A DNA stretch of 37,905 nucleotides from an uncultured Acidimicrobiales bacterium (GCA_964612655.1 CAZTDG010000004.1:9600-47504), one strand, 5' to 3'; counted from the first letter of the stretch, positions 1 through 19,402 are shown. Notes: generated by a model from the letters alone, not told the origin. Translations and numbers: made by a program.

Positions 1-1855
1 ACGAACCGTTGACCTCGGTGGCGGTTGCCGCGGCGGGAAGCACAACGTCGGCGCCCGTCGAGGTGAAGTTCAACAACGTGTCGACCGAGATGAGGCTCGA
101 TACCTGCTGCAGCGCCGATTCGACGAGTGCAGTGTCGGGGAAGTCGGTGAGAGGATCTGCCCCGAGGAGAATGATGGTGTCGAATCCACCGGCGGCGGCC
201 CGACGAAGGATTTCGGAGGTGTCGTCGCCCGTGGCGGACGGGGCCTTGTCCCATGTCTCGGGAATGTCGCCCAACGGCACACGACCTGGCAGCAATCCTG
301 GGGCGAGCCCCATGTCGATTGCGCCCATGACGTTGCTGCGGTGCAAGGCCGGAAGGAATCGGGCCTCGCCGTTGGCGTTGGCGATAGCGGCCAGGGCCGT
401 TTCGATCACGCCGGGGTCGGTGCCGAGTGGTCCAGGTCCGTACACGACGGTGACCGGACCACGAAGCGCGTCTGCAAGAGCGCCCTCGGCTCCTTCAGCG
501 AGCGCATCGGAGATGTGTGCACCCAACTGGGAGAAGCGCACGATCTCGGTGGCCTTGGCGTAAGGAGCGAGTCCGCCCATTCGCGGCCCGACCTCGATCA
601 AGGTGGCCTTGTCGTTTTCGGCTGCGTGACGCAGACGCAAGAAGAGTGCGCCGTGGGTTTCCTTCGGGTCAGCGCCGAGGACCACGATGGTCCCGCCAGG
701 TGCGCAGGCCTCTGCGATGGTTGCCCGAGGCAATCCAAGGACCAGGCGGGCGTCGAGACCGTCGCCCAACTGCGCGTCGACGTTGTCGGTACCGATGACC
801 GACTTCGCGAGCTTGGCCCAGGCGTACTGGGACTCGTTCGACATGCGAGCGCCACCGATGACGGCGACACGATCGGGGTCGGTGTCCTTGAGAGCCTCGG
901 CGGCCTTCGAGAGCGCCATCGACCAGGAAGCGGCCACCAATTGATCGCCATCGTCAGCGGGCGATCCGAGGCTGTCGCCTCGTACCAGCGGCGTGGTCAC
1001 GCGAGCATCGGAGTTCCACGCTTCGAAGTTGAAGCGTTCCTTGTCGGAGAGCCAACCCCAGTTCACAGCGTCGCTGTCGACGCCGAGGTACCGAAGCACT
1101 TCGTTGCGTGAGGACTGGACGGTGATTCGAGAGCCGACCGAATCGGTCGTGGCTGTGGATGGAATCTCGGAGAGATCCCACGGACGGGCCTTAAAGCGGT
1201 AGGGCTTCGCGGTGAGGGCGCCGACCGGGCAGATCTGCACGGTGTTGCCGGAGAAGTACGAGCTGAACGGCTCGTCGGGGAACGTATTGACCTCGGTCTG
1301 GTTTCCGCGGGCCTGGAAGTGGATCAGCGGATCGCCAGCAACCTCTTTTGCGAATCGGGTGCACCGGTCGCACAAGATGCAGCGCTCTCGGTCCAAGAAG
1401 ACCGTGTCGCTGATCGGGATCGGCTTCTTGAAGTGGCGCTTCTCTTCAACGAACCGGCTTTCGCCAGGTCCGTAGGCCATTGTCTGGTCCTGCAACGGGC
1501 ACTCGCCGCCCTTGTCGCAGATCGGGCAGTCGAGCGGGTGGTTGATGAGCAGGAACTCAAGAATGCCGTCTTGGGCCTTCTTGGTTACGTCGCTCTCGGT
1601 GTCGACGGTCATGCCGTCAGAAACCGGCACCATGCAGCTCGGTTGCAAGCCCATGCCGCGGCCGGTGTCGACCTCGACAAGGCACATGCGGCACATGCCG
1701 ACTGGCTTCATACGTGGGTGGTAACAGAAGCGTGGGATGTAGACGCCGTTGCGCTCGGCGGCGTCGATCAACATCTCGCCCTTCTCGGCCGTGATCTCGT
1801 TGCCGTTGAGATTGACGGTTACGCCAGTTTCAACTTCTGGTTCAGTCGCGGTCAT
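1..1855 (-). CDS. nuoG: NADH-quinone oxidoreductase subunit G (3' part outside window)
   Basis: Not in the ORF track because it runs off the edge. Manual translation from ATG 1855 (ATGA overlap with nuoF stop): MTATEPEVETG...IPRFCYHPRMKPVGMCRMCLVE...HPLDCPICDKGGECPLQD...RERCILCDRCTRF...QICPVGAL, the N1b/N5/N4 cluster motifs. Confidence 0.96.
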   Translation of the reverse strand, partial: MTATEPEVETGVTVNLNGNEITAEKGEMLIDAAERNGVYIPRFCYHPRMKPVGMCRMCLVEVDTGRGMGLQPSCMVPVSDGMTVDTESDVTKKAQDGILEFLLINHPLDCPICDKGGECPLQDQTMAYGPGESRFVEEKRHFKKPIPISDTVFLDRERCILCDRCTRFAKEVAGDPLIHFQARGNQTEVNTFPDEPFSSYFSGNTVQICPVGALTAKPYRFKARPWDLSEIPSTATTDSVGSRITVQSSRNEVLRYLGVDSDAVNWGWLSDKERFNFEAWNSDARVTTPLVRGDSLGSPADDGDQLVAASWSMALSKAAEALKDTDPDRVAVIGGARMSNESQYAWAKLAKSVIGTDNVDAQLGDGLDARLVLGLPRATIAEACAPGGTIVVLGADPKETHGALFLRLRHAAENDKATLIEVGPRMGGLAPYAKATEIVRFSQLGAHISDALAEGAEGALADALRGPVTVVYGPGPLGTDPGVIETALAAIANANGEARFLPALHRSNVMGAIDMGLAPGLLPGRVPLGDIPETWDKAPSATGDDTSEILRRAAAGGFDTIILLGADPLTDFPDTALVESALQQVSSLISVDTLLNFTSTGADVVLPAAATATEVNGS

Positions 1856-3255
1856 TTGCCAACCTCCACTGGAGTGGGCGCCGGTTGGGCGTTCTCAATT
1901 TTCTCGTCGAACTCGTCACGGAAGCGTCGCAGCGCCGAAGTAATCGGTGCCACCGACGATGGGCCGAGCGGGCAAATGGTGGTTTGCTTCGGCGGGAACG
2001 GGACGGCTTCGAGGCCTTCGGCTTCGTGCGATGCAACCGGGTACGGCCCCGGGGAAATGTTGTCGCCGATGTCGAGCAGAAGTTCGATGTCTCCGGGACG
2101 ACCGTGACCGTCGAGGATGCGCTGGAGGATCTTCTCTTCCCAGCTGGTGCCTTCACGACACGGGGCGCACTTGCCGCACGACTCACGTGCGTAGAAACGA
2201 ACGAGACGTAACGCCGACTTCACCGCGCAGCTGGAGTCATCCATGACCATGATTGCGCCCGAACCGAGCATGGTTCCCGCAACGCCAACCGGCTTGGCCT
2301 CAAGAGGCAACCCGACCTGCTCGGGGAACAGCCAAGGAGCCGAACCGCCGCCAGGAACGAAGGCCTTCAACTCACGACCGGGCAACATGCCCTGGCAGTA
2401 GTCGTCGCCGTAGAGCAGATCTTCATAGGTGGTGACACCTTGCTCGACCTCGTAGACGCCGGGGCGCTTTACCTGGCCAGATACCGCGAACATGCGGGTT
2501 CCGGGCGAGGTCTCGGAGCCGAACTCCTTGTAGGCATCGGCGCCGTTGTTCATCAACCACGGCAAGTTCGCGAGCGTCTCGACGTTGTTCACGATCGTGG
2601 GCTGGCCATAGAGGCCAACGGCGGCCGGGAAGAACGGAGGCTTCAGGCGAGGCATGCCGCGGTTGCCTTCGAGGCTTTCGATCAGCGCGGTCTCTTCGCC
2701 AACGATGTAGGCGCCTGCGCCCCAATGGAGAACAATGTCGACCGAGAAGTCGGTGCCGAGAATGTTCTGACCGATGTAGCCGGCGGCGTACGCCTCGTTG
2801 AGCGCATCAGCGATGCGCTGCTGAGCGATAGGCATCTCGCCGCGCACGTACAAGAAGCACTGGGTGAGCCCAATCGCGTAACACGCGATGAGACAACCCT
2901 CGATGAGCTGGTGAGGATCGCGTTCCATGAGGAGGCGGTCCTTGTAGGTACCGGGCTCTGACTCATCGCCATTGACGACGAGGTAGCGAGGCCACACTTC
3001 GTCGGGGACGAAACCCCACTTGATGCCGGCAGGGAAACCTGCACCGCCGCGACCGAGCAAGGTCGCGTCTCGGGTGGTGCCGTGTACTTCAGCTGGCGTC
3101 TGCTCCAGGGCAGCTTTAATGCCCGTGTAGCCGCCGGTGGCCTCATAGCGTGCGAGCGTGTAGCTGTCCTCGTAGGTGAAACGGGACGTAACGATCTTGG
3201 TTCCCGGAGTCTCTACATAGCCCGGAGCGTGCGGGACGTAATCACCGATGGCCAT
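1852..3255 (-). CDS. nuoF: NADH-quinone oxidoreductase subunit F (FMN, N3)
   Basis: GRGGAGFPAGIKW, NGDESEPGTYKDR, GAGAYIVGEETAL, ESCGKCAPCREG...TICPLG. Start placed at ATG 3255 (TAATG overlap with nuoE stop) rather than 3285. Confidence 0.96.
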   Translation of the reverse strand: MAIGDYVPHAPGYVETPGTKIVTSRFTYEDSYTLARYEATGGYTGIKAALEQTPAEVHGTTRDATLLGRGGAGFPAGIKWGFVPDEVWPRYLVVNGDESEPGTYKDRLLMERDPHQLIEGCLIACYAIGLTQCFLYVRGEMPIAQQRIADALNEAYAAGYIGQNILGTDFSVDIVLHWGAGAYIVGEETALIESLEGNRGMPRLKPPFFPAAVGLYGQPTIVNNVETLANLPWLMNNGADAYKEFGSETSPGTRMFAVSGQVKRPGVYEVEQGVTTYEDLLYGDDYCQGMLPGRELKAFVPGGGSAPWLFPEQVGLPLEAKPVGVAGTMLGSGAIMVMDDSSCAVKSALRLVRFYARESCGKCAPCREGTSWEEKILQRILDGHGRPGDIELLLDIGDNISPGPYPVASHEAEGLEAVPFPPKQTTICPLGPSSVAPITSALRRFRDEFDEKIENAQPAPTPVEVGK

Positions 3256-3899
3256 TAGCTGTCCTTCGCTGCAGCGGTAAGCCATACCGGTGCTTCGTTG
3301 ACGAGTTCGGGAGCGATGATGTGCGCCGTCTGCTCTTCGGTCATGTGCTGGCGCGCAAGCCCCAATGTGCCGTGGCTCGGAATTGGCTCACCGGGGTTCG
3401 CGGTGATCAGCTTCTCGGGCGTGTTGCCCGCACGAAGCGCCGCAATGATGTCGTCGAGATCATCGGTGGTCAACCGCATGCCGAACCGGTAGTTCACCTG
3501 GATGCAGGGAGCTTCGGTGCAGGCCGCGATGCACTCGACATCTTCGATGGTGAACATGCCGTCTTCGGTCGTTCCGCCAGCGCGGATACCGAGCGTCTGT
3601 TCGGCGTGGTGCAACAACTCTTCGGCGCCGAGCAGCTGGCACGAAAGGTTGGTGCAGATGTTGATCATGTATTTGCCAACGGGATGCAGCTTGAACATCT
3701 CGTAGAACGTGCAGGTACCACGAACCTCCGCAGGGGTGACTCCCACGAGTTCGGCGAGATGCGCCATGGCCTCGTCAGACACCCAGCCATCTTGTTCTTG
3801 GGCCAAATGCAGCAGCGGAATCAGCGCGGACTTCGGCCGCGGATACCGGCGAATCACGTCGTGCGCGAGCGCAACGTTGTCTTCATTCAATCTACTCAT
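3255..3899 (-). CDS. nuoE: NADH-quinone oxidoreductase subunit E ([2Fe-2S] N1a)
   Basis: SALIPLLHLAQEQDGW, CTNLSC...ECIAAC; lies between nuoD and nuoF. Confidence 0.95.
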   Translation of the reverse strand: MSRLNEDNVALAHDVIRRYPRPKSALIPLLHLAQEQDGWVSDEAMAHLAELVGVTPAEVRGTCTFYEMFKLHPVGKYMINICTNLSCQLLGAEELLHHAEQTLGIRAGGTTEDGMFTIEDVECIAACTEAPCIQVNYRFGMRLTTDDLDDIIAALRAGNTPEKLITANPGEPIPSHGTLGLARQHMTEEQTAHIIAPELVNEAPVWLTAAAKDS

Positions 3900-3909
3900 G
3901 CGACAGACC

Positions 3910-5217
3910 TCACCGATCTACCTCGCCCATAATCGGGTCAACACTCGAAATATTTGCAACGGCGTCCGCGAGCAGACCGTTCTCCATCAAGTGTGGCAAC
4001 ACCTGCAAGTTGATGAAGCTCGGCGGGCGAACTCGCATGCGATACGGGTTCGATGACCCGTCCGACACGATGTAGACACCCAGCTCGCCACGCGGACTCT
4101 CGACCGCGGCGTACGCCTCGCCGACGGGAACTTTGAACCCCTCGGTGAAGATCTTGAAATGGTGGATCAGCGCTTCCATGGACTCATCGATTCGAGCCCG
4201 AGGTGGAGGGGTGACCTTCTTGTCTTGGACGCGGTAGTCGCCCGGTGGCATTTTCTCCACGCACTGGCGCACGATCTTGATCGACTCTTCGATCTCGGCG
4301 AGCTTGATCGCAAACCGGTCAAAGCAATCGCCATAGCTGCCTACGGGAACGTCGAAATCGACTTCGTCGTACGCGAGATACGGCATGTCACGACGAAGAT
4401 CCCAGCTACTACCCGCTGCACGCAGCAATGGCCCGGTCGTACCCAATGCGAGGCACTCGGCCTCGTTCAAGATGCCGACCCCTTGGAGGCGGTCGCGCCA
4501 CAGTGGCTGACCGTTCATCAAGATGTGGTACTCCTCGAGCCGAGGCTCGATGGCATCCATAAGGGCAATGACGTCGGTTTCCCAACCATCGGGAAGATCG
4601 GCGGCCACGCCGCCAGGACGGATGTAGTTGTGGTTCATGCGAAGGCCAGTGACCTTCTCAAAGAACCGCAGTACCGGCTCGCGCTCACGCCAGCCGTAAA
4701 TGATCATCGAGACCGCACCGAGATCGAGGCCGTTGGTGGCCATGAACAACAGGTGCGACGAGATCCGGTTCAGCTCGCACATGAGCATGCGGATCCAGGT
4801 AGCTCGTGCCGGAATTTCCAAACCGAGCAGCTTCTCGGTAGCGAGAGAGAACGCCAATTCGGTGAACAGCGGCGCCGCGTAATCCATCCGGGTCACATTG
4901 GTGCAGCCCTGAAGGTAGGTCAGGTCCTCGCCGGTCTTTTCCATGCCGGTGTGGAGATAGCCAATGATGGGCTTGGAACGAAGGACCGTCTCGCCCTGCA
5001 TCTCCAACATCAGGCGAAGCACGCCGTGAGTCGACGGGTGCGACGGACCCATGTTGATGATCATCTTGGTATCGCCGATGTCATCGGTGGGGTCTAGCGA
5101 AAGTGCGGAGGCCTCGGTCTCGGACAGCCGAAGTACGGCGTTCTCCCGACCGCTGACGCGATCGGCGGTCCCGACGCTTTCGTCGAGTTCGGAACTCTCT
5201 TGTTCTGCAATAGTCAT
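3910..5217 (-). CDS. nuoD: NADH-quinone oxidoreductase subunit D
   Basis: NMGPSHPSTHGVLRL, GYLHTGMEK, ESPRGELG, C-terminal DPIMGEVDR. Confidence 0.97.
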   Translation of the reverse strand: MTIAEQESSELDESVGTADRVSGRENAVLRLSETEASALSLDPTDDIGDTKMIINMGPSHPSTHGVLRLMLEMQGETVLRSKPIIGYLHTGMEKTGEDLTYLQGCTNVTRMDYAAPLFTELAFSLATEKLLGLEIPARATWIRMLMCELNRISSHLLFMATNGLDLGAVSMIIYGWREREPVLRFFEKVTGLRMNHNYIRPGGVAADLPDGWETDVIALMDAIEPRLEEYHILMNGQPLWRDRLQGVGILNEAECLALGTTGPLLRAAGSSWDLRRDMPYLAYDEVDFDVPVGSYGDCFDRFAIKLAEIEESIKIVRQCVEKMPPGDYRVQDKKVTPPPRARIDESMEALIHHFKIFTEGFKVPVGEAYAAVESPRGELGVYIVSDGSSNPYRMRVRPPSFINLQVLPHLMENGLLADAVANISSVDPIMGEVDR

Positions 5218-5230
5218 CGAATCATCCGGC

Positions 5231-5800
5231 TCATGTGCGTCCCGGCGCGTCTTTGAATGCCACGGGGATCGCGCCGATGTCGTAGTCCTTGCGAAGTGGG
5301 TGACCGTTCCATGATTCAGGCATCAGGATCCGGCTCATGTCGGGATGGTCAGCAAAGACGATGCCGTACATGTCAAAGGTTTCACGTTCGAGCGCCTCGG
5401 TACCTGGGAAGAGGTCGAACAAGGTCGGAACCTCGGTACCTTCGGCGACTTGGAGGCGAATCCGAACTCGTTCGCGGCGAACCTGACTGAGCAAGCTCAC
5501 GACCACTTCGAATCGCTCGGGAGTGACGCTTGCTGGCAAGTCGCTGCGCTGGTGATGGAGATAGTCGACACCGAACAGGTCGGTGATGGTGCTGAAACCG
5601 TCTTCTTTGAGTTCCGAAACAAGATCTTCGTAGTCGTCGATTCCGGGGAACAGAACCGCATCGCCGAACGCCTCGCCAGCGGGCACGCCATAGCGTTGGT
5701 CCGCGCCGGCTTGGGCAGGCGAATCTTCGGTGTCGGTCTCTTCGACGACCTCTTCTTCGACCGGGGCTTCGGTTTCTGTGTCTTCGCTCGCCTCAGCCAT
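5231..5800 (-). CDS. nuoC: NADH-quinone oxidoreductase subunit C
   Basis: ERETFDMYGIVFADHPDMSRILMPESWNGHPLRKDY. Start moved to ATG 5800, 1 nt after the nuoB stop; the track start at 5980 overlaps nuoB. Confidence 0.93.
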   Translation of the reverse strand: MAEASEDTETEAPVEEEVVEETDTEDSPAQAGADQRYGVPAGEAFGDAVLFPGIDDYEDLVSELKEDGFSTITDLFGVDYLHHQRSDLPASVTPERFEVVVSLLSQVRRERVRIRLQVAEGTEVPTLFDLFPGTEALERETFDMYGIVFADHPDMSRILMPESWNGHPLRKDYDIGAIPVAFKDAPGRT

Positions 5801-5801
5801 C

Positions 5802-6398
5802 TCAGCTTCGACCAATCGCAACGGCGGTTTGACCGTCGCGCTGGGCGACTTCGATGCCAGCGCCGCCACCGGTTGCTTCGCGGCGGCGCAGAATTTCGCC
5901 GGTTTCGATGCTGTTATGCAGCGTGAAGATCGCGTGCAAGAGGGTTTCTGGTCCTGGAGGGCAGCCCGGGGCGTAGACATCGACGGGAACTACCTGATCG
6001 ACACCTTGGACGAGGGCGTAGTTGTTGAACATGCCGCCACTCGACGCGCAGACGCCCATAGAGATGACCCACTTGGGTTCAGCCATCTGGTCGTAAATCG
6101 TGCGTAGTACCGGCGCCATCTTTTGCGATACTCGACCGGCAACGATCATGAGGTCGGCCTGGCGTGGCGAAGCTCGGAACACTTCCATGCCGTAGCGAGC
6201 CATGTCGTAGTGAGCTGCGCCTGTCGCCATCATCTCGATCGCGCAGCACGCAAGGCCAAACGTCGCCGGCCACGTGCTTCGAGCACGAGACCAATTGACG
6301 AGGTCTTCGACCCGGCCTGTTACGAAGTTGTGTTCGAGGCCAGCGAGGCCGTCGTCAACAACGCCACGCCCCGTGGCTTCATCTTGAAAGAGTCCCAT
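5802..6398 (-). CDS. nuoB: NADH-quinone oxidoreductase subunit B (N2 cluster)
   Basis: [47 protein letters not shown]. Confidence 0.97.
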
Positions 6399-6868
6399 TA
6401 GGCACCCTCAGATGAAGCTGCGTAATCCTCGCGACCCTCGACGCCAACCTTACGGATGGTCGAGCGTGTGGTGCGTCCCTCAGACACGGCTGCGGTAAGG
6501 CGGCGAGCCTGGTGGACGGGGCCCCATTCGAGCGCCCCATTACCAATGAGGTAGACGAATGATTCAAAGACCGCTGCGGTGAAGATCAGGATCGCCAGGA
6601 AGCCAAACGTTCCCAGGCTCGCGTTAGCGACAGCCCATGGATAGAAGAAGATCAATTCGATATCGAACACAATGAAGATCATCGCGATGAGAAAGAACCG
6701 AACGGGGAACCGCTCTGGTGTGTCCTTCGCAGGCTCAATTCCGCACTCATAGGCGGAGTTCTTCTTATCGTTCGGACGCTTCGGAGCGAGCAGCTTGTTC
6801 ACGGGAAAGCTAAGTGCAGCGAACAAGACCCCTAGAGCACCAAGCGCGACTAACGGCAAATATTGCAT
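6398..6868 (-). CDS. nuoA: NADH-quinone oxidoreductase subunit A
   Basis: [34 protein letters not shown]; three hydrophobic segments; TAATG overlap with nuoB. Confidence 0.96.
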
Positions 6869-6874
6869 GACAAT

Positions 6875-7963
6875 CTAACCCTCGTTTGAGAACGCTTCTA
6901 CTCGTCTCATCGTTGCGATGTCGCGGAAGTGAAGCAGATAGACGAGCGCAGTGAAAATAAGTAGCGATCCTAGTGTGATCATGGCTGGTGGGAACCGGAG
7001 ATTGCCCAGTTCACGGACCATAACCACCGAAATGACCGGTGCATCTTCATCAACTCGTGGGAACGGTGGCGCTTCACCCTCACGGGTAATCAGCGCCTCG
7101 GCGTCGATCGCTTGAAGCTGAACGACGGAGTATTCGGTTGGATTCCTAATCCGTGCGGAATTTGCGATCCAGTGCCAGCCACGGCGCAGGTTATCGGTAC
7201 AGAAGGTGCAAAGAAGATCGATGTCGCGATCGAGGCGAGGCTTGCCGCCGGTACGGAATGCATCAAGGAAGCGGAACTCGGCCTGCGAGTCGAACGGGAA
7301 GCCATCTTCTTCGAGGATCGCTGCGCCAGCGGTGGTCTGGGCCTCGCCAGCCTCGCCGGTGCTCAAAATTTCCCAGCCATTGAGGTCCGGCAGGACTCGG
7401 GTCTGCCCGTCTGCTCCCGGAATCTCGCCGGCAGCGAACGCCTGCTCGACGAAGTCGGGCGCAACCGAGAAGACCTGCGAGATGGTGGTCGAATCGTTGC
7501 GCTGGAGCTGGCGAATGGTTTCGGCGGTAATCTCATCGGCCGTCATCTGTGCGGCGGCGTCAGAGAACTCGTCGAACTCGTCGACGAATTCGGCCATCTC
7601 TTCAACGCCCTCCGCCATACCAAAGTTCGCGATATCGATGCCGAGCCCCTCTAGATCTGCGGCAATAGGGAGATCTCGGGCACGTTCCACGGATGATTCA
7701 GTGATGTCGGTGCGGTTGAAGTCCTGGACGACCCAAGAGACCGAGTCGCCAACGAAACCGATTCCACGGATCCACCAGAAGGCCCCCATGATGACCATCC
7801 AGCCAAAGAACGCTGCGATGCAAAGCAGTGCTGCCAGGCGTGCGCCTTGGTTGGTAGCCATGATCATCCAGACCGAACCAAACAACACGATGGCGCCGAC
7901 AGCGACAACGAGGGCACCGCGAATCTCGGGGTCGAACCCGATCTGTGCGAGAAGTGAAGTCAC
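6875..7963 (-). CDS. Uncharacterised membrane protein (2 N-terminal TM, large acidic loop, C-terminal TM)
   Basis: Open frame with hydrophobic segments; probable GTG start at 7963 overlapping the upstream TAG (TAGTG); ends 6 bp before nuoA. Confidence 0.85.
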   Translation of the reverse strand: MTSLLAQIGFDPEIRGALVVAVGAIVLFGSVWMIMATNQGARLAALLCIAAFFGWMVIMGAFWWIRGIGFVGDSVSWVVQDFNRTDITESSVERARDLPIAADLEGLGIDIANFGMAEGVEEMAEFVDEFDEFSDAAAQMTADEITAETIRQLQRNDSTTISQVFSVAPDFVEQAFAAGEIPGADGQTRVLPDLNGWEILSTGEAGEAQTTAGAAILEEDGFPFDSQAEFRFLDAFRTGGKPRLDRDIDLLCTFCTDNLRRGWHWIANSARIRNPTEYSVVQLQAIDAEALITREGEAPPFPRVDEDAPVISVVMVRELGNLRFPPAMITLGSLLIFTALVYLLHFRDIATMRRVEAFSNEG

Positions 7964-9306
7964 TACAGGCTCCTCTCGTATGCAACGATCGCGGCGATCT
8001 GATCTTCGGTGAGGCTCGCTGGCCATTCGACCGAGACCTCGACGAATTCCTGCAAGGTCGGATCAAAGACTTCTTCGACCAGGCCGGAGTCTTGGCGAGC
8101 GCCAAAGCCCGGCATCTGACCACTGCCCTGTCCCGCGTTGCCGTATTGAATTCCAAGCTCGGAGCCCGAGGCGATGAATGCTTCCATCGTCGCCACTGCC
8201 GGGAACTGACCGAGCGTGCCGCCGTTGGTCAGGTTCGGACCGAACCAGCCGCCGCCTTGTTGGTGACCGGGAACTTGATTTCCGGCCTCGTCGGTCACGG
8301 TGGTCAGGACTTCGCCGTCGACGTTGATGTCGTTGGCTCCATCGAAGGACCAGCCTGCGGTATGGCATCGAGCGCAACCGTATGCGCCGGCGTCGGCCCG
8401 ATTGGTGAAGAGCAGCTCGCCGTAGGTGAGGTACTCGGGATGCTCGGGATCGGAGATCTCGTCGAGCCAGTCCGTCAATGCGTCGGTCGGGAAGAGCTCC
8501 CCGAGTTCAGCCTGCAGGGAGCCAAGCTCGCCTTGGGCCTCTTCGATATTGGAACCGACACCGGTCTGCGAGGCCCGCTGCACATTCAGGCGAGCTTCTT
8601 GGAGGCGATCGGACAGTTCGGGATCTCGGCTAACCATCTCGAGTCGCGCGCCCTCTACGAGGCCATCTTGCACGGAGTTCTGCACCGAATCGAAGTCTCG
8701 CTGTGTGGTGCGAAGGTAGACGATCAGAATCTCGAGCTGCTGCGTGGTGAGCGGGCCACCACCGGGAGCGCCCCATGCGGGCATTACGCCATTTCTTCCG
8801 AAGTTAAGCGTGTGGAGGACTTCGTCCTCAGAGAAGCGGGTTAGTACCGATGTGAGCGAGGGAGCTACCCAGTCAACAGAAGAAATGAATTCACCGGTTC
8901 CGGCTTCGGTGATCGCGAACGCGACCGTACCGCCAGCACCGCCACCACCGTGGCAAGACGAGCACGCTTCTTCGAATTCTTCAGCGCCGTCTTCCGCCCA
9001 TAATTCGAGCGTGTTTTCCACCAAGCCCTCTTGGCGGCCGGGCTCACCCAGCCAGTACAGCGGAAGGGCAATTCCGATGATCGAGAGGAGCGCCAACCCC
9101 GAAAGCAAGCTCTGATCGAGCTTGCGTGTTTCCAAGATGTCGTCGTCGTGGTACGGCTTTCGATTGGCCGCCAACTCGATCTCTGCACCTCCCTCGCCTC
9201 GAGAGTCGAGGAGGTTGAAAAACAGATAGACGATGAAGCCGATAATGACGATGGCGAGGATGACGAAGCCAACGTCGCGTGCGGCGCTCTGGGCAAGAAA
9301 CATCAC
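7963..9306 (-). CDS. Membrane-anchored diheme c-type cytochrome
   Basis: Two N-terminal TM segments, CSSCH...VMPAWG and CARCH...GQMPGFG (two CxxCH plus distal Met motifs). Confidence 0.92.
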   Translation of the reverse strand: MMFLAQSAARDVGFVILAIVIIGFIVYLFFNLLDSRGEGGAEIELAANRKPYHDDDILETRKLDQSLLSGLALLSIIGIALPLYWLGEPGRQEGLVENTLELWAEDGAEEFEEACSSCHGGGGAGGTVAFAITEAGTGEFISSVDWVAPSLTSVLTRFSEDEVLHTLNFGRNGVMPAWGAPGGGPLTTQQLEILIVYLRTTQRDFDSVQNSVQDGLVEGARLEMVSRDPELSDRLQEARLNVQRASQTGVGSNIEEAQGELGSLQAELGELFPTDALTDWLDEISDPEHPEYLTYGELLFTNRADAGAYGCARCHTAGWSFDGANDINVDGEVLTTVTDEAGNQVPGHQQGGGWFGPNLTNGGTLGQFPAVATMEAFIASGSELGIQYGNAGQGSGQMPGFGARQDSGLVEEVFDPTLQEFVEVSVEWPASLTEDQIAAIVAYERSL

Positions 9307-9318
9307 AGTCTTAAACTA
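9307..9318 (-). promoter_or_regulatory. Putative -10 element (TAGTTT) 6 nt before the GTG of the diheme cytochrome c gene; leaderless-type start
   Basis: Minus strand reads TAGTTT-aagact-GTG ATG with no Shine-Dalgarno; it follows a terminator. Confidence 0.45.
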
Positions 9319-9355
9319 GGGGAATATCGCGCGTAAAACTCTGTTTAGGGGGGGC

Positions 9356-9397
9356 AAAAATATGAGAACGAGGTCACGTTTCCGTAACCTCGTTCTC
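9356..9397 (-). terminator. Intrinsic terminator after the Rieske gene
   Basis: Minus transcript GAGAACGAGGUUACG-GAAA-CGUGACCUCGUUCUC-AUAUUUUU: 15-bp stem with one G-U pair, GNRA loop, U tract. Confidence 0.8.
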
Positions 9398-9409
9398 TAA
9401 GTGAATAAA

Positions 9410-10276
9410 TTAGGCGTGCGACGACGCTCCGAGGCAGCTCGGACCCTCGCGTTCTTGGCCGGTTGTGTTCACACCAATGGCCGGGCCATTGATGATATTG
9501 CCGGTGTCAACGGTGAGAACTCCACCGGAAACATCCATCGCCATGAAGTCCATGCCACGAGGTGCCGGACCGCCACGCTTTTCGCCTACTCGGTTGTAGA
9601 CCGAACCGTGGCACGGGCACTCGAAGAACTGTGAGCTACCGCATTCAGGTACACGGCAACCGAGGTGTGGGCACTTCTGGAACACGGCCTTCACGCCAGC
9701 TTGGATACCAGGCCACGCTGGGGTTGAGGCATAGATCGGTGCGCCAGCTTCGAGTGATCCCACGGGATACTCGGTGAGATACATACGACCCTCGGGCAGA
9801 TACAAGAAACCGTTGTTCGAACGGATGCTTGCGATCACGTCGGGGATCGGGCCGACCGTAATCGGGTTACCGAAGCCCTCGCCTGCGCCCGGCCACAGCT
9901 GAGCGATAACGGCGAGGCCGAAACCGGTCAGGTTGAGACCGAAGACCGCAATGATGGCTCGGTTCAAGAACTGACGACGAGCAACACCGATCTCTTGGGG
10001 ATCTGGCGCTACCCACGGCTCGATTTCATCCTGTGGGACAGCGATTTCGCTCTTGCGACGCTCAAGGGCCACAGACTTCTCGACGTCACGGCCGGTAACA
10101 CCGCCTTCAACCGCGGCTGCACCGACGGCGGACTTAACCCGCTCGCGGTCACGACGCCGTGTCTCAGCGGACACTTCATTGATCGCGCTCGATGCGTCCT
10201 GTCTACGGGACGCAGCGAACAATCCGATGGCAGCCAGTGCTACCAGGATTACTACTGCAACAATTATGAATATCAC
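9410..10276 (-). CDS. Rieske [2Fe-2S] protein of a Rieske/cytochrome b complex
   Basis: CPHLGC and CPCHGS boxes, GPAPRGM; internal RRQFLN followed by a TM helix, plus an extra N-terminal TM. Confidence 0.95.
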   Translation of the reverse strand: MIFIIVAVVILVALAAIGLFAASRRQDASSAINEVSAETRRRDRERVKSAVGAAAVEGGVTGRDVEKSVALERRKSEIAVPQDEIEPWVAPDPQEIGVARRQFLNRAIIAVFGLNLTGFGLAVIAQLWPGAGEGFGNPITVGPIPDVIASIRSNNGFLYLPEGRMYLTEYPVGSLEAGAPIYASTPAWPGIQAGVKAVFQKCPHLGCRVPECGSSQFFECPCHGSVYNRVGEKRGGPAPRGMDFMAMDVSGGVLTVDTGNIINGPAIGVNTTGQEREGPSCLGASSHA

Positions 10277-10288
10277 TACCAGCTCCTT

Positions 10289-11089
10289 TTAGAACTCGAA
10301 GAACAGACCATCTCGCCAAGGGAAGACAAAGTTGAATCCCGGACCTCGGAAGAACGAACCAATCATCGTGAGAACAGCCCAATACATCAGGTGTACCGTT
10401 TGTAACGAGATAGCGAACTTGCGATCTTCCGGCTTCATAGAAGGGTTTCGATCGATGTAAGGAGCCAGAATCAGCAAAATCATGCCCATTCCGGGAATAG
10501 TCACCCCTGCGACCTGTGGATGGAACAGCGTCAGAAGCTCCTGGAGGCCCAAGAAATACCACGGTGCCTTGGACGGATTCGGCGTTTCATTGAAGTTTGC
10601 GAGCTCCAACAACGGTGCGTTTACAAAGACCGAGAAGATCAAGATGAACGCCAACACGAACAAACAGCACACGAACTCGACGACGAGTAGGTGAGGCCAG
10701 GTGTGGACCTTGTCCTGTGGGACGGCCTTGACGTCTTGGATCGATCCGGACTTGACCACCGTCAACAGCCGTTGCGTGTGGCCACCGGGGCCTGTTGCGA
10801 TCGGCGCTGGAGCAGCGGCAACTGCGGTGGCAACTCCGCCACCAGCAGCAGGAGCGGCTTCTGCGGTGGCTGCCGGCTCTACGGCACCGCCACCATCGGC
10901 CTTGGACTTCGCTGCCTTTGAGCGTGCCAAGAGATGCGCAGGAATCTTTGATGCTGCTTCGCTCTTCGGTGCGTCGTCGGACGCTTCCGCAGCTGGAGCT
11001 GCCGCTTCGGCTGGAGCATCATCGGATGCTGCAGCTTTCGCACGTGCCTCGGCGGCTCGTTTACGAAGATGTTCAGGGATTTCAGTCAT
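10289..11089 (-). CDS. Cytochrome b C-terminal subunit (subunit IV/PetD-like) with low-complexity N-terminal extension
   Basis: WPHLL, APLLELANFNETPNPSKAPWYFLGLQE, PYIDRNP; three TM segments; immediately after the cytochrome b6-like gene. Confidence 0.9.
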   Translation of the reverse strand: MTEIPEHLRKRAAEARAKAAASDDAPAEAAAPAAEASDDAPKSEAASKIPAHLLARSKAAKSKADGGGAVEPAATAEAAPAAGGGVATAVAAAPAPIATGPGGHTQRLLTVVKSGSIQDVKAVPQDKVHTWPHLLVVEFVCCLFVLAFILIFSVFVNAPLLELANFNETPNPSKAPWYFLGLQELLTLFHPQVAGVTIPGMGMILLILAPYIDRNPSMKPEDRKFAISLQTVHLMYWAVLTMIGSFFRGPGFNFVFPWRDGLFFEF

Positions 11090-11107
11090 GTCTCAATTCC
11101 CTTTCGA

Positions 11108-11896
11108 CTAGAGCGGTCCGGAGATTCCGCCGTCTTTGCGGACTCTCCAGAAGTGGATGGCCATAAAGATGACGGTGACGAACGGTAAGAACAGAACGTG
11201 CAGCACGTACCAGCGGAGCAACGTGTCCGTTCCGATTTCGACACCACCGAGTAGTACGAATCGGACTTGTTCACCAAAGACGGGTGTAAAGCCCATCATG
11301 TTGGTTCCCACGGTCACAGCCCATAGTGCGAGCTGGTCCCATGGTAGGAGATAGCCGGTGAAAGAAAGCAGCAGGGTGAACTGCAACAACATCACACCAA
11401 TAACCCAGTTGAATTCACGCGGTGCCTTGTAGGCGCCGTGGTAGAAGACGCGGGCCATATGCAAGAACACCGATAGCACCATGAGGTGAGCCGCCCATCG
11501 ATGCATGTTGCGTACGAGCAGACCGAAGGTCACGGCGCTTTGGAGCGCAAAGATGTCGTCCCAGGCTTGGGCTGCGGTCGGCCGGTAGAAGAACATCAAG
11601 AAGATGCCGGTGACCGTCAAGAGGATGAAGGTGAAGAAGCTGATGCCACCGAGGCACAGCGTGTAGCTGACCTTGACCGCGTGACGCTTCACCTTGACCG
11701 GGTGCAAGTGATACAGCACCGAGTTCATGATCACGTAGGACCGGTTACGAGGGCTATCGCTGTAGCCCTTGCGGAAGATCGAACCGGGACGGAAGATCGA
11801 GCTCCAGGCCTGTGAGCCTTGAGTCTGATCAATCAGTTCGTTCGTCTTCTTTTGGATCTGTGCCGAAACCGGCAACTTGTTCTGGTCTTTTGCCAC
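11108..11896 (-). CDS. Cytochrome b6-like N-terminal subunit (4 TM)
   Basis: YTLCLGG, RNMHRWAAHLMVLSVFLH, FTGYLLPWDQ, LHVLFLPFVTVIFMAIH, C-terminal GISGPL; GTG start. Confidence 0.95.
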   Translation of the reverse strand: MAKDQNKLPVSAQIQKKTNELIDQTQGSQAWSSIFRPGSIFRKGYSDSPRNRSYVIMNSVLYHLHPVKVKRHAVKVSYTLCLGGISFFTFILLTVTGIFLMFFYRPTAAQAWDDIFALQSAVTFGLLVRNMHRWAAHLMVLSVFLHMARVFYHGAYKAPREFNWVIGVMLLQFTLLLSFTGYLLPWDQLALWAVTVGTNMMGFTPVFGEQVRFVLLGGVEIGTDTLLRWYVLHVLFLPFVTVIFMAIHFWRVRKDGGISGPL

Positions 11897-11940
11897 GAAT
11901 CAGAACCCCTCAGTAAGCGTCGTGTTTGTAAAGAAATCGT

Positions 11941-12357
11941 TCATCCGAGCCGCATTCCGTAGCCGTAGCCATGGGTGTTTGTGCGCTGGTGGTAATCGCC
12001 GTTGGGATCAGGGTCGCTGATCTTGCCCAAGATGATCACACCGGTCGGACAGCGATCGACACACAGTGCGCACCTGGTGCACACGTCGTCGTCGATCGTA
12101 AAGATGACATTGTCGGATGGATCGAGACCGGGTTGTTCGGTTCCGATCGCTTCATCGATAGCCGTGGGCGACACCATATGGATGCACTTCCACGGGCAAA
12201 TATCGACACAGCCTTCGCACATGATGCACTCGGACTGATCGATATGAATGAACTGCTTTGGCTTGACCGCCGCCGATAGCCATGCCGCGTCGACTTCCTG
12301 CAGGACGTAATCGTCCCGGAATTCCGGCATCGGGGGATTGGCATCGGTGACCGACAC
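11941..12357 (-). CDS. 2x[4Fe-4S] dicluster ferredoxin
   Basis: CIMCEGCVDICP and CTRCALCVDRCP; no signal peptide or TM. Confidence 0.93.
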   Translation of the reverse strand: MSVTDANPPMPEFRDDYVLQEVDAAWLSAAVKPKQFIHIDQSECIMCEGCVDICPWKCIHMVSPTAIDEAIGTEQPGLDPSDNVIFTIDDDVCTRCALCVDRCPTGVIILGKISDPDPNGDYHQRTNTHGYGYGMRLG

Positions 12358-12360
12358 GGC

Positions 12361-12816
12361 TTAGCTCACACCTTCTCGCACGAGCGGACGCCCGAACTCA
12401 GATGGTGCCTCGGTTGCCTGCTCGGTTGCGGCAGCGCGTGCATCTCGGGTCTGCCAGTGATTCCAGTAGAAGATGTTGGCGCCGAGGAACGCTATGTAGA
12501 TGCTGACCGAAATGAGGTCACGCAACACGATGAAAGGAATATTGAACGGGAAGAAGCCGCCGTTGGATTGCGAGCGAAGCAGTCCGAACAATTCGAAGTT
12601 GCGGTCGGCCCGCCAGTTGAGACCGCCGTCGGCCCACTGAAGCCAGAAGTGCGGCACTACCCCGTAGATCCAGAAGAAGATTGCGAAGACGTACGTCGAG
12701 GCAATCATCGCTTCGCCCCATGTCATCTGCTTATTGACCGGAGTGCGCTTCTCGTACCAGTGGTAAACGCTCACCATCAAGGCGGTGACGACCAACGAAA
12801 CAATGAACTCAGCCAT
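12361..12816 (-). CDS. Small aromatic-rich membrane protein of unknown function (about 3 TM), first gene of the cluster
   Basis: Three hydrophobic segments; AGGAG upstream; 3-bp gap to the ferredoxin gene. Confidence 0.8.
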   Translation of the reverse strand: MAEFIVSLVVTALMVSVYHWYEKRTPVNKQMTWGEAMIASTYVFAIFFWIYGVVPHFWLQWADGGLNWRADRNFELFGLLRSQSNGGFFPFNIPFIVLRDLISVSIYIAFLGANIFYWNHWQTRDARAAATEQATEAPSEFGRPLVREGVS

Positions 12817-12898
12817 GTCGTGCGCTCTCCTCGCTCGGTAATTTCAGGGTTGTCTTCGTAAAGTCTTCCACGATTACTATCGGCCGCGAGGCCAGCGC

Positions 12899-12921
12899 TC
12901 GTGAATGTAAGCACAAGTGTA
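12899..12921 (-). promoter_or_regulatory. Putative -10 (TACACT, 12921-12916) with adjacent Rex-like operator (12899-12916)
   Basis: Plus strand TCGTGAA-TGTA-AGCACAA versus Rex consensus TTGTGAA-N4-TTCACAA (11 of 14 matches); covers the predicted start site. Confidence 0.5.
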
Positions 12922-13195
12922 GTCGGAGCGGGAATAACTTAATCGCTCGCGACCAGTGGTTTATCGCGTAAATCGTAGTCGAGCCGATATCGGCGAGTGG
13001 TGACAAACGTCGCTCCCGATAGTTCTGCCGCGACTCGATTCCACCCATCGCATCCTCCTAGGCTTCACATTTGTTGCCACGGCTTCGCTATCGTGAGATT
13101 TGCGCGGCCAAACCCAACGCTGTTGGCCGAGAAGGCCGTACGCTTTCGAGGGCGATATTCGTCCCCAATGTTGCACGTCGAAGAGGAGACGTCTG

Positions 13196-14047
13196 ATGAC
13201 CGAAATCCCGGAACATCTGCTGAAGCGTTCGAAAGAGCGTAAGGCGGCGCTGTCTGGGGAGTCCGGCGACGCCGAGGCTCCGGCTGAAACCTCAGAAGCC
13301 TCGACCGCGGTCGAGCCAGCCGCTGCACCATCTGCAGCACCAGCGGTCGCCCCCGCACCCGTTCCTGATATTGCGGCCGAGCCCGAGCCTGTCAAGGTCG
13401 CCCCTTACGTTCAGCAGTTCGAAGAGCGCAAGAAGATGCCGTTCTGGATCGCACCTGTCTTGCTGGCACTTCCGGTATGGGCGTTGTTCTATGTCGGAAC
13501 CCTGGAACGAGTTCCCCAAGGTCTCACCGGTCTGCTCGGCGAAGGCGAAGAGCTCTATATCGAATCGGGCTGCTCGGGTTGTCACGGCGCTGAAGGCGGC
13601 GGCGGTATCGGCCCAGCCCTTGCGAACGGCGAAGTACACATCACCTTCACATCGATCGAAGATCAGATGGCCTGGATCGCTCGCGGTTCGGCAATCGTGG
13701 GCACCGGCAACAACTACGCATCGCCCGACTCGCTTCGTCAGCGCCCAGTCGCTGGCCAAATGCCTGGCTACGGCATCGACGGCTCGACCTCGCTCAACGT
13801 CGAGGAGTTGCTCGCTGTCACCCTGTACGAGCGCACGCAACTCGAACCAAACGAGGAAATCGCCGAAGAAGAGATTCTCTTCGCCGAGGCGATGAACCTG
13901 TTGCTCGAAACCGGCGAACTCGAGGGAATGCTCGAAGAGGACGGGCTCACCATCGAAGATGTTTTCGACGGCCAGACCGTCACTTCCGAACAGATTGCCG
14001 AGTATTTGGCGCCTGTTCGAGAAGCGATCGCTGGCGAGGCCAGCTGA
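13196..14047 (+). CDS. Membrane-anchored monoheme cytochrome c
   Basis: GAGGAG RBS before ATG 13196; one TM; CSGCH...GPAL...GQMPGYG. Confidence 0.9.
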   Translation: MTEIPEHLLKRSKERKAALSGESGDAEAPAETSEASTAVEPAAAPSAAPAVAPAPVPDIAAEPEPVKVAPYVQQFEERKKMPFWIAPVLLALPVWALFYVGTLERVPQGLTGLLGEGEELYIESGCSGCHGAEGGGGIGPALANGEVHITFTSIEDQMAWIARGSAIVGTGNNYASPDSLRQRPVAGQMPGYGIDGSTSLNVEELLAVTLYERTQLEPNEEIAEEEILFAEAMNLLLETGELEGMLEEDGLTIEDVFDGQTVTSEQIAEYLAPVREAIAGEAS

Positions 14048-14051
14048 TCGA

Positions 14052-14495
14052 ATGACCGCTGCGACGTTCCCCGGTGAGGTTCGCAGCCATCAGCGTTATT
14101 TCCATGCGGTGCGATCTCATCGCGCCACGCCCGCCATCACACTCGCCGGGGTCTGCGCCGTCGCTGCCTTTACGGAGGCTGGCGCCGACGAAGGCGTGGT
14201 GTTGTGCCCGTTCCGGCTAGCGACCGGCGGTTGGTGCCCAGGCTGTGGCTGCACCCGAGCGTTGGGTGCCCTGATTCGAGGCGACGTGAGCGGGTCGTTC
14301 GCGTACAACCCGTGGTCGATGATCCTGCTCGCTCAAGCGACCGTGATCGCCGGTTGGGTTATGGCCGCTCCCGAGAGCGCAAAGGCGTGGTGGACACACC
14401 GCGGGATACACCTCATCGTCGCGAACCTGGTCCTCGCCGTTTTGATCTGGATTCCTCGCCTCGTCGGCGGAGTCATCCCACTGCCCTTTAGCTAA
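14052..14495 (+). CDS. DUF2752-like membrane protein
   Basis: CPFRLATGGWCPGCGCTRA...YNP motif with TM segments; start uncertain (ATG 14052 or a later GTG). Confidence 0.75.
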   Translation: MTAATFPGEVRSHQRYFHAVRSHRATPAITLAGVCAVAAFTEAGADEGVVLCPFRLATGGWCPGCGCTRALGALIRGDVSGSFAYNPWSMILLAQATVIAGWVMAAPESAKAWWTHRGIHLIVANLVLAVLIWIPRLVGGVIPLPFS

Positions 14496-14530
14496 CCGGC
14501 CCCTTAGCTGACCAGGCTCCAGCTAACCGC
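14483..14530. repeat. Three imperfect ~16-bp tandem repeats at a convergent junction
   Basis: gccctttAGCTAACCg / gccccttAGCTGACCa / ggctccAGCTAACCgc. Confidence 0.5.
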
Positions 14531-17444: not shown

Positions 17445-17550
17445 ACGCCAGTATCGGCCAGCATGGCCCGCTATAAACGCACCCCGCCGCAAAGCCCCCG
17501 GGTCAAGGCACCCGTACTTCTCGCAGGCAAGCACCGCCGGTGGTATGGAG

Positions 17551-19398: not shown

Positions 19399-19402
19399 GT
19401 TG

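Follow-up and report, generated by a model that had tools for sequence, protein, structure and literature searches.

A b6-type Rieske/cytochrome b module with a conserved ferredoxin-like partner, directly linked to the complex I operon in Acidimicrobiales

This analysis concerns a 37,905-nucleotide (nt) stretch of DNA from an uncultured Acidimicrobiales bacterium (GCA_964612655.1 CAZTDG010000004.1:9600-47504; hereafter the window), and within it a module of seven co-oriented genes that runs directly into nuoA, the start of the complex I (nuo) operon. The module encodes, in order, a membrane protein of 151 amino acids (aa; m151), a ferredoxin-like protein (fdx138), cytochrome b6, subunit IV (SUIV), a Rieske protein, a dihaem c-type cytochrome and a second membrane protein (g383). 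By its sequence features the core of the module is a b6-type (split) Rieske/cytochrome b complex, and the whole is probably a housekeeping menaquinol:cytochrome c oxidoreductase (complex III) on the b6f plan, equipped with three lineage-specific partners and fused to nuo for co-expression. The pairing of a ferredoxin with b6, the two partners that match no family or fold and the direct linkage to nuoA within the order appear to be undescribed so far; a literature search of running text, on which operon-map figures or supplements may still bear, found neither the ferredoxin partner nor the linkage to nuo described.

Proteins of the window were examined by open reading frame (ORF) calling, Pfam, NCBIfam and sequence features (motifs and transmembrane segments). 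A first-pass annotation of the window had proposed seven co-oriented genes followed by nuoA, a 6-bp gap in front of the latter and a divergent cytochrome c gene, and all of these were recovered (Table 1), the gap at positions 6869-6874 and the divergent gene on the plus strand. The intergenic gaps from m151 to the dihaem cytochrome c were 3, 44, 18, 12 and 103 nt, after which the cytochrome c gene overlaps that of g383, and 6 nt precede nuoA. The likely start of the divergent cytochrome c was an internal Met at 13196, rather than 13100. Below the window, nuoH-N continue on the same strand of the contig (C4) and include the operon's own 2x[4Fe-4S] NuoI, the module and the complete nuoA-N together forming a co-oriented block of 21 genes over approximately 22 kb.

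The cytochrome b of the module is split, SUIV being a separate ORF 18 nt downstream of b6. In a phylum-wide alignment of b6 (A2), the haem-ligand pairs H132/H146 and H233/H248 were invariant in 52 of 52 rows, with spacings of 14 and 15 residues in helices B and D that correspond to bis-His ligation of two b haems; the spacing rule for haems bp and bn comes from b6f structures. The motif C81-L82-G83-G84 in helix A (CxGG, the attachment motif of haem ci, also called cn) was equally invariant (52/52), and haem ci is very probably bound covalently on the cytoplasmic side of b6. The Qo motif of SUIV, A175-P176-W177-Y178 (APWY), was likewise invariant in the 52 of 52 aligned sequences of that subunit (A3). 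SUIV also carries an N-terminal extension of approximately 125 aa, which is of low complexity, predicted to be cytoplasmic and contains two copies of the motif IP(E/A)HL-x-(K/A)R(S/A). The Rieske protein has an N-terminal transmembrane helix and then an RRQFL twin-arginine-like motif before a second transmembrane helix. The dihaem cytochrome c is membrane-anchored through N-terminal hydrophobic segments, its gene holds a conserved place after that of the Rieske protein, and it is presumed to be the electron acceptor of the latter.

Searches against solved chains returned chloroplast and cyanobacterial cytochrome b6 as the closest to the window b6 (164 bits, E 4e-47), with the cytochromes b of bc1 and actinobacterial bcc complexes scoring at most 112 bits. 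Amongst the NCBIfam models, b6 passed that of ExtP (NF040969; 301.1 bits, cut-off 290), and passed neither the b6 subfamily model NF002990 (209.4 bits, cut-off 325) nor the actinobacterial QcrB model NF050120 (119.6 bits, cut-off 500). SUIV failed the ExtQ model (51.6 bits, cut-off 150), and b6f PetC-like matches to the Rieske protein stayed under the cut-off (PetC equivalog, 49 against 250). The first-pass view that the locus encodes a split b6/subunit IV Rieske complex, not an unsplit QcrB, is thus upheld, the QcrB score falling far short of its model. According to the available parts of Kao and Hunte (2014; PMC4122944), CxGG occurs in the APWY clade, and Ilumatobacter coccineum is one of four actinobacterial strains with a split cytochrome b, in the PEWY-cyt c or APWY clades. 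This listing, together with the motifs and the ExtP score, places the window complex in the APWY clade. Since an APWY/CxGG clade with the split cytochrome b of Ilumatobacter is already published, the core is of a known kind, and the earlier description of the system as poorly described was overstated. Passing the ExtP model does not warrant giving its name to the window cytochrome b.

Conservation of the gene order was surveyed within the order using b6 as the query, which matched 39 of 41 genomes (the window's own included), and 17 main-copy loci from 17 genomes were mapped. It was found that nuoA-D directly followed g383 in all 16 loci reaching far enough, the contig of the other (L048) stopping after the Rieske gene, and that the divergent cytochrome c was present in 16 of the 17, the exception (L050) stopping at a contig edge. 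A sample of the class, in which b6-nuoA pairings were read manually from two tables, comprised 151 genomes, 35 of the same order; b6 was present at an identity of at least 71% in 141 of these, and any match at E<=1e-20 in 148. High-identity b6 was found in 30 of the 35 order genomes, the other five (families f19, f20 and f25) having only a distant, unsplit-type cytochrome b match. In 29 of these 30, nuoA was located on the same strand 3.7-4.6 kb downstream, and the contig of the remaining one (G166) breaks. Altogether, the informative genomes of the order number 45, and in every one of them nuoA comes immediately after the module. The gene arrangement is more than chance; it recurs in every relative within the order that has sufficient contig.

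Outside the order, b6 and nuoA were within 22 kb of each other on one contig in approximately 48 of 115 class genomes, among the nuoA matches listed. In all four genomes of approximately 1 Mb belonging to family f29 (G045, G096, G128 and G180) the two genes were hundreds of kb apart on the same contig, and in the rest of the 115 they were on different contigs, or nuoA was not among the matches listed. A synteny survey had been proposed in the first-pass annotation as the check on its idea, and the linkage to nuo proved to be conserved (16/16 loci and 29/29 genomes of the order, approximately 48 more in the class). Genes for the ferredoxin, b6, SUIV, the Rieske protein and cytochrome c were present in all 19 genomes fetched from other orders. 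Of these, 3 had nuoA adjoining the downstream end of the module, 8 had it on the same strand after 2.7-17 kb of other genes, 7 had it in divergent orientation and 1 had it at a distance. For instance, at locus L061 a gene for an FAD-dependent geranylgeranyl-reductase-like protein, possibly a menaquinone side-chain reductase, precedes nuoA between the divergent module and nuo. As g383 remains behind the cytochrome c gene where nuo is divergent, m151 and g383 are taken as the two ends of the module. In other classes of the phylum, SUIV and Rieske genes follow b6 in 19/19 loci with flanking sequence, and nuoA-D had no matches in the 20 fetched stretches (0/20). As related genomes are not independent of one another, these counts reflect inheritance and retention of the arrangement and are no sign of a repeated origin.

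A second nuoA and a second NuoF-type gene are encoded elsewhere in the metagenome-assembled genome (MAG) that contains the window (Table 1), and nearly all of the 151 class genomes show two nuoA matches, which suggests two complex-I-type operons per genome, only one of them linked to the module.

The ferredoxin-like gene was located immediately upstream of b6 wherever the pair was mapped: in 17/17 loci of the order, in 19/19 genomes of other orders in the class, and in 20/20 loci from 14 families in other classes of the phylum. All eight cluster cysteines of fdx138 were invariant in 52 of 52 rows (alignment A4), and the protein is extended at its N terminus by a conserved stretch; an insert of approximately 30 aa separates the two cluster motifs. 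It lacks a transmembrane segment and is predicted to be cytoplasmic. Its identity across the class ranged from 50 to 99%, tracking that of b6 and exceeding the conservation of the Rieske protein and cytochrome c. Relatives were found in 124 of 301 sampled phylum genomes, a tally that takes in rows from 10 genomes flagged as unpublished, and were not found in several large families of the same sample (e.g. 0/22, 0/20 and 0/9). Related stretches in genome contigs came from Acidimicrobiia-type records only, among the best 80 of 398 confirmed; the named records with the closest ferredoxins in these 80 were Acidimicrobiales, Ilumatobacteraceae, Microthrixaceae, Aquihabitans (the complete genome of a named strain) and Iamia (a MAG). 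A profile search of the PDB with the ferredoxin retrieved generic polyferredoxin and NuoI-type domains, and no subunit of a bc complex. The possibility that the ferredoxin is a displaced NuoI was rejected, because the nuo operon encodes its own NuoI.

When the ferredoxin was modelled as a complex with b6 and SUIV, the median score was 0.45 (runs of 0.51, 0.45 and 0.27), the best of three controls scoring 0.00; at least 35% of contacts agreed between the runs, and the partner predicted local distance difference test (pLDDT) score was at least 60. In calibration, 58 of 80 solved complexes attained the mark, as did 2 of 110 mismatched pairs; at scores of 0.60 or below it was attained by only 7 of those 80 plus both passing mismatches. 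These figures apply only roughly here, as the use of own alignments and of two riding 4Fe-4S clusters departs from the calibration. Docking of the ferredoxin on b6/SUIV is accordingly a weak prediction. Nonetheless, an iron-sulphur (FeS) connection from the n side to the quinone-reduction site is favoured, on the grounds of conservation, gene position and this weak prediction.

In the scheme that we favour, menaquinol would be oxidised by the split cytochrome b, with its two b haems and haem ci on the cytoplasmic side, and electrons would pass via a Tat-exported Rieske protein to the membrane-anchored dihaem cytochrome c and then, probably via the divergent monohaem cytochrome c, to a haem-copper oxidase of the A type whose genes lie elsewhere. 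The ferredoxin would lie on the n-side face of b6/SUIV, where the conserved cytoplasmic tail of m151 may hold it, and would open a second route for electrons between the cytoplasm and the quinone-reduction site, whilst g383 would be a module protein of three transmembrane helices with an outward-facing domain. In the Acidimicrobiales the module would head the nuoA-N operon such that complexes I and III are co-expressed; the linkage is read as co-regulation, and not as proof of a physical supercomplex.

The housekeeping role draws on the wider gene content of these genomes. The MAG (3.19 Mb, 334 contigs, 91.9% complete) was searched for an unsplit canonical QcrB, as was a single-contig genome of the same genus, and none was found in either; this was the result of the search for a canonical qcrCAB-cta locus that the first-pass annotation had recommended. 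Three single-contig relatives (G058, G043 and G128) each harboured one cytochrome b match and an A-type COX1 and no NrfD-family protein, and thus no alternative complex III. COX1 was present in all ten relatives tested (5/5 and 5/5), always far from the module. A housekeeping role is the most likely one because the three single-contig relatives have no cytochrome b complex other than the module to go with their A-type oxidase, and lack an NrfD-family protein.

The same three genomes bear on an alternative in which the main job of the module is ferredoxin- or NAD(P)-linked, with electrons passing from FeS clusters through haem ci into the quinone pool, or with reverse or bifurcating operation delivering low-potential electrons to the cytoplasm, a mode that has been suggested for Rieske/b complexes of the APWY clade and of anammox bacteria. 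A ferredoxin:menaquinone-type route has long been proposed for b6f in cyclic flow. The APWY and CxGG motifs, the dedicated 2x[4Fe-4S] protein conserved beside b6 and its weak docking (0.45, against 0.00 for the best control) would all suit such a function, and the literature, in the parts available, ties APWY to reverse operation (PMC4122944) and subfamily G to FeS/NAD(P) subunits (Dibrova et al. 2017; PMC5600118). However, these single-contig genomes are of an aerobic type and need forward quinol oxidation, since alongside their A-type oxidase neither a cytochrome b complex other than the module nor an NrfD-family protein was found. The operon also lacks an NAD(P)- or FAD-binding subunit, and a paralogue retains the ferredoxin without the haem-ci cysteine. 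We consider a ferredoxin- or NAD(P)-linked main function to be quite unlikely.

The paralogues in question are second ferredoxin-b6-SUIV-Rieske-cytochrome c clusters, found in G009, G029 and G039 (loci L054-L056, with L054 in G009), which lack m151, g383 and nuo; their b6 lacks the CxGG cysteine, whilst their SUIV keeps APWY. The presence of the ferredoxin hence does not depend strictly on haem ci. In G009 the paralogous cluster (Table 1) is located approximately 4 kb from COX1, next to a 749-aa frame, part of which is weakly cytochrome b-like. In the MAG itself, the only cytochrome b-like ORF besides that of the module encodes a b6-like protein of 288 aa (L002; Table 1), which was considered as a canonical QcrB and rejected, being a b6-like paralogue with 48% identity over residues 90-253. 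This gene is stand-alone, with no adjoining subunit IV or Rieske gene, the second helix-B His is apparently replaced, and it may be a degenerate paralogue.

These clusters also weigh on the proposition that the ferredoxin, with m151 and g383 perhaps likewise, is not a subunit but serves in assembly or maturation (e.g. of haem ci or the Rieske cluster), or that it is an independent co-transcribed carrier. Attachment of haem ci in chloroplasts needs dedicated membrane factors, m151 and g383 have no recognisable family or fold, and the docking result is weak, all of which would accord with such a role. The ferredoxin is nonetheless very conserved (up to 99%, and at least 50% class-wide) and tracks b6, not the faster-evolving subunits, and its retention in a paralogous cluster without the haem-ci cysteine argues against a role in haem-ci ligation. 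An assembly function, or that of an independent carrier, is in our judgement decidedly improbable. The identification of m151 as a CCB1-like haem-ci ligation factor was unsupported, with no Pfam match at E<=0.01.

The first-pass annotation had counted a ferredoxin and two membrane proteins of no known family in the module, and these are indeed present, m151 and g383 matching no Pfam family and no NCBIfam family. The protein-atlas neighbours of m151 were hypothetical proteins from Actinomycetota only. Its AlphaFold2 (AF2) model (pLDDT 88.6) consists of three long helices and a low-confidence, disordered C-terminal tail, and had no PDB fold matches at E<=0.001. The end of this tail, S-x-F-G-R-P-L(V/K), was nearly invariant in a 32-row alignment (A6), and by the positive-inside rule the tail would be cytoplasmic; m151 is possibly a membrane anchor or partner of the ferredoxin, with the tail as a docking peptide. 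It was detected class-wide (16/17 order loci and 18/19 genomes of other orders), and in other classes in 1/20 loci, weakly.

Two N-terminal transmembrane helices, an alpha/beta ectodomain of approximately 250 aa and one C-terminal transmembrane helix make up g383, whose AF2 model (pLDDT 90.8, predicted template modelling score 0.80) also had no PDB fold matches at E<=0.001 (best TM-score 0.16). The protein atlas has this protein from residue 22, with hypothetical Actinomycetota proteins as its neighbours. Matches of at least 35 bits to g383 were obtained in 13 of the 19 genomes of other orders in the class, and a g383-like N-terminal transmembrane pair was present in 15/20 loci of other classes.

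The motif of the SUIV extension recurs in the divergent cytochrome c. In the MAG, IP(E/A)HL-x-x-R(S/A) occurs in suitable open frames in three copies, two in SUIV and one in the divergent cytochrome c (Table 1), and six further matches to a looser pattern look unrelated. The cytoplasmic N terminus of the divergent cytochrome c opens with MTEIPEHLLKRS, as does subunit IV. A slightly wider pattern was found in 35/37 class loci and 0/20 loci of other classes, a range that coincides with those of m151 and of the nuo neighbourhood. In some families the motif is extended to PEHLLRRSAEARAKALG-x-P-x-E-x-VLAEM and resembles a small helical domain.

This shared distribution is one reason to consider a physical, respirasome-like assembly of complexes I and III, held by m151, the IPEHL-KRS extension of SUIV and/or g383, in which case the gene fusion would reflect co-assembly. 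Such an assembly would fit the position of nuoA directly after the module in 45/45 informative order genomes, and the proximity of b6 and nuoA (within approximately 22 kb, co-oriented or divergent, among the nuoA matches listed) in some 48 more class genomes. Both m151 and the motif share the range of the nuo neighbourhood (motif 35/37 against 0/20; m151 in 1/20 elsewhere), and the motif is carried by two different membrane proteins of the cluster and by nothing else in the MAG. However, adjacency of respiratory operons is no evidence of contact, and gene linkage is the sole basis of the idea. The genomes of approximately 1 Mb are unlinked in 4/4 cases and yet keep m151 and the motif (L069), linkage is absent from 20/20 other-class loci that keep the module, and where nuo is divergent or displaced other genes intervene, such as that of the geranylgeranyl-reductase-like protein. 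A physical I-III assembly is thus regarded as improbable.

A bolder formulation combines the two ideas. In the Acidimicrobiia and several other deep classes of actinobacteria, a permanently bound 2x[4Fe-4S] subunit would wire haem ci and the quinone site to the cytoplasm, and in the Acidimicrobiia the complex would in addition be tethered to complex I by the SUIV and cytochrome c motifs and m151, so that a single super-operon would encode a ferredoxin-gated I-III unit. We rate this formulation as unlikely. Our preferred reading is still that of a housekeeping complex III with its own partners, co-expressed with complex I.

Several observations weigh against that preferred reading. The docking of the ferredoxin is weak, and by the calibration a result of this kind is oftener wrong than right unless the interaction was likely beforehand. 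The paralogous clusters L054-L056 retain a ferredoxin-like gene, though their b6 lacks the CxGG cysteine. COX1 (PF00115) was not found in the MAG, at 91.9% completeness over 334 contigs, which is probably an assembly gap. The MAG and the same-genus single-contig genome G009 both carry an NrfD-family protein, hence the genus may have an alternative complex III. The available text of PMC4122944 reports that no APWY complex has been characterised and proposes reverse operation for APWY.

The seven genes may, moreover, be two transcripts here, because a terminator-like hairpin follows the Rieske gene. This strong hairpin, located in the 103 nt that separate the Rieske gene from that of the dihaem cytochrome c, has a 15-bp stem and a 4-nt loop and is followed by a T tract, ATATTTTT; amongst 46 loci, 40 of which could be scanned, the same hairpin, with stem changes, was present only in the two closest relatives (L057 and L058). 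It is possibly a partial terminator or an mRNA-stability element, and if it terminates part of the transcripts, the cytochrome c, g383 and nuo may form a unit of their own. Consequently, of the single run of seven genes into nuoA described in the first-pass annotation, the gene order stands, whilst the genes may not form one uninterrupted transcript owing to the internal hairpin. A promoter scan of the window yielded 2 sigma-70-like sites against 2.9 expected, and no Rfam family reached its gathering score anywhere in the window.

The features of the module, of its neighbours and of the related loci discussed above are compiled in Table 1. In the genomes of approximately 1 Mb, weak COX1-like frames (38-43 bits) were observed some 1.6-1.8 kb from b6 on the opposite strand, and that of G128 is interrupted by stop codons.

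Table 1. Features of the window (plain positions, counted from its first nucleotide) and of other contigs and loci (positions with a prefix).
Feature	Position	Strand	Description
m151	12361..12816	-	151-aa membrane protein, first module gene; 3 predicted transmembrane helices
m151 tail end	12361-12400		S-x-F-G-R-P-L(V/K)
fdx138	11941..12357	-	138-aa 2x[4Fe-4S] ferredoxin-like protein; two CxxCxxCxxxCP motifs; Fer4 families, E 6e-11
Cytochrome b6	11108..11896	-	262 aa; PF00033, 151.7 bits; four-helix N-terminal half of cytochrome b
Subunit IV (SUIV)	10289..11089	-	266 aa; PF00032, 28.3 bits; C-terminal half of cytochrome b
IPEHL-type motif sites, SUIV extension	10935-11089; 10680-10730		
Rieske [2Fe-2S] protein	9410..10276	-	288 aa; PF00355; boxes CPHLGC and CPCHGS
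Terminator-like hairpin	9364..9397	-	Between Rieske and cytochrome c genes
Dihaem c-type cytochrome	7963..9306	-	447 aa; two CxxCH motifs; PF13442 and PF00034
g383	6875..8026	-	383-aa membrane protein, last module gene; likely true start GTG at 7963, giving 362 aa
nuoA	6398..6868	-	PF00507
nuoB	5802..6398	-	1-nt overlap with nuoA
nuoA, B, C, D, E, F, G	2..6868	-	Pfam; nuoG cut by window edge
Divergent monohaem cytochrome c	13196..14047	+	One CxxCH; one transmembrane helix; PF00034; membrane-anchored
IPEHL-type motif site, divergent cytochrome c	13196-13260		
Small Cys-rich membrane protein	13959-14495		Adjoins divergent cytochrome c; conserved there in the genus
M16/pitrilysin-like peptidase	14523-17597		1024 aa; cluster neighbour (NCBIfam)
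hemL-like (aminotransferase class III) and hemB (ALAD)	18130-20449		Haem-synthesis genes; cluster neighbours
Second nuoA	G000:C165:2134-2424		Elsewhere in the MAG
Second NuoF-type gene	G000:C33:8373-8885		Elsewhere in the MAG
b6-like paralogue (L002)	G000:C10:916-1782		Elsewhere in the MAG
Paralogous cluster L054	G009:C1:3722000-3741500		
Geranylgeranyl-reductase-like gene	L061:11317-12600		
Weak COX1-like frames	G045:C1:988235-989044; G096:C1:10266-11078; G128:C1:1003026-1003670		Approximately 469 aa in two

Photosynthesis research has long asked what purpose haem ci/cn serves and whether ferredoxin can deliver electrons to the quinone-reduction site of b6-type complexes. If the wiring of the ferredoxin to that site is true, the module would be a naturally occurring counterpart, outside photosynthesis, of the ferredoxin-to-haem-cn route long hypothesised for b6f. 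The module offers a b6-type complex with a dedicated, tightly conserved ferredoxin-like partner in aerobic heterotrophs, some of them cultured, where these questions could be studied without a photosystem background. Should these aerobes have no complex III other than the APWY complex, the proposal in print that APWY stands for reverse operation needs revising; it does not fit genomes that have the module as their only complex III beside an aa3-type oxidase. For annotation, the cytochrome b passes a model named for the ‘selenite/tellurite reduction operon ExtP’ and would be misnamed by it, and three conserved genes of the module are still labelled ‘hypothetical’. Sea water, lakes, soil and wastewater sludge all harbour abundant Acidimicrobiia, and given this abundance the module would belong to the respiratory chain of a sizeable proportion of the actinobacteria in the environment.

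With the b6f complex of cyanobacteria and chloroplasts, the module has in common the split b6 and subunit IV, CxGG and a Rieske protein, and the b6 chains of b6f are its best structural match. It differs in that no cytochrome f (PetA) or PetG/L/M/N was recognised in the window, the acceptor being instead a dihaem c-type cytochrome, in its Qo motif (APWY, not PEWY), in its non-photosynthetic context, and in the addition of a 2x[4Fe-4S] protein and two membrane proteins without a known family. The respirasome I-III2 of mitochondria and some bacteria comprises the same two enzymes, and is known by physical association, whereas here it is their genes that are shown to be linked.

APWY, a short b6 with CxGG and a split subunit IV are shared with the APWY clade or subfamily G (Geobacter ExtO-P-Q, of Cbc5 type, and anammox). 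The Geobacter ext cluster, which is involved in selenite/tellurite reduction, has multihaem cytochromes and porin-like and rhodanese-like proteins, with no ferredoxin among its listed products in the available part of PMC5877670; the multihaem ExtKL/M/N/S and the porin-like ExtI are not in the window, which has only dihaem and monohaem cytochromes c. In planctomycetes, subfamily G is linked to large cytoplasmic NAD(P)/FeS oxidoreductases (PMC5600118, as far as available). In contrast to these anammox and planctomycete complexes, the seven window proteins include no NAD(P)/FAD-binding FeS subunit and only the 138-aa ferredoxin. The window-type complex differs from these APWY-clade complexes also in being the sole cytochrome b complex of aerobic-type genomes, as in the three single-contig relatives.

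The actinobacterial bcc complex (QcrCAB, in bcc-aa3) resembles the module in phylum, in its dihaem cytochrome c, in a Rieske protein with extra N-terminal transmembrane helices and, presumably, in its menaquinol substrate and aa3-type oxidase partner. Its QcrB is, however, unsplit, approximately 540 aa in length and without CxGG, whereas the window cytochrome b is split, its genes are not beside cta, and the ferredoxin, m151 and g383 are extra. The menaquinol:cytochrome c reductase of Firmicutes (Bacillus QcrABC, of b6c type) is likewise non-photosynthetic and combines a split cytochrome b, haem ci and menaquinol. In Bacillus, according to the available parts of PMC4122944, a monohaem cytochrome c is fused to subunit IV and PDWY is the Qo motif; no ferredoxin gene is described there, whereas the window module has one.

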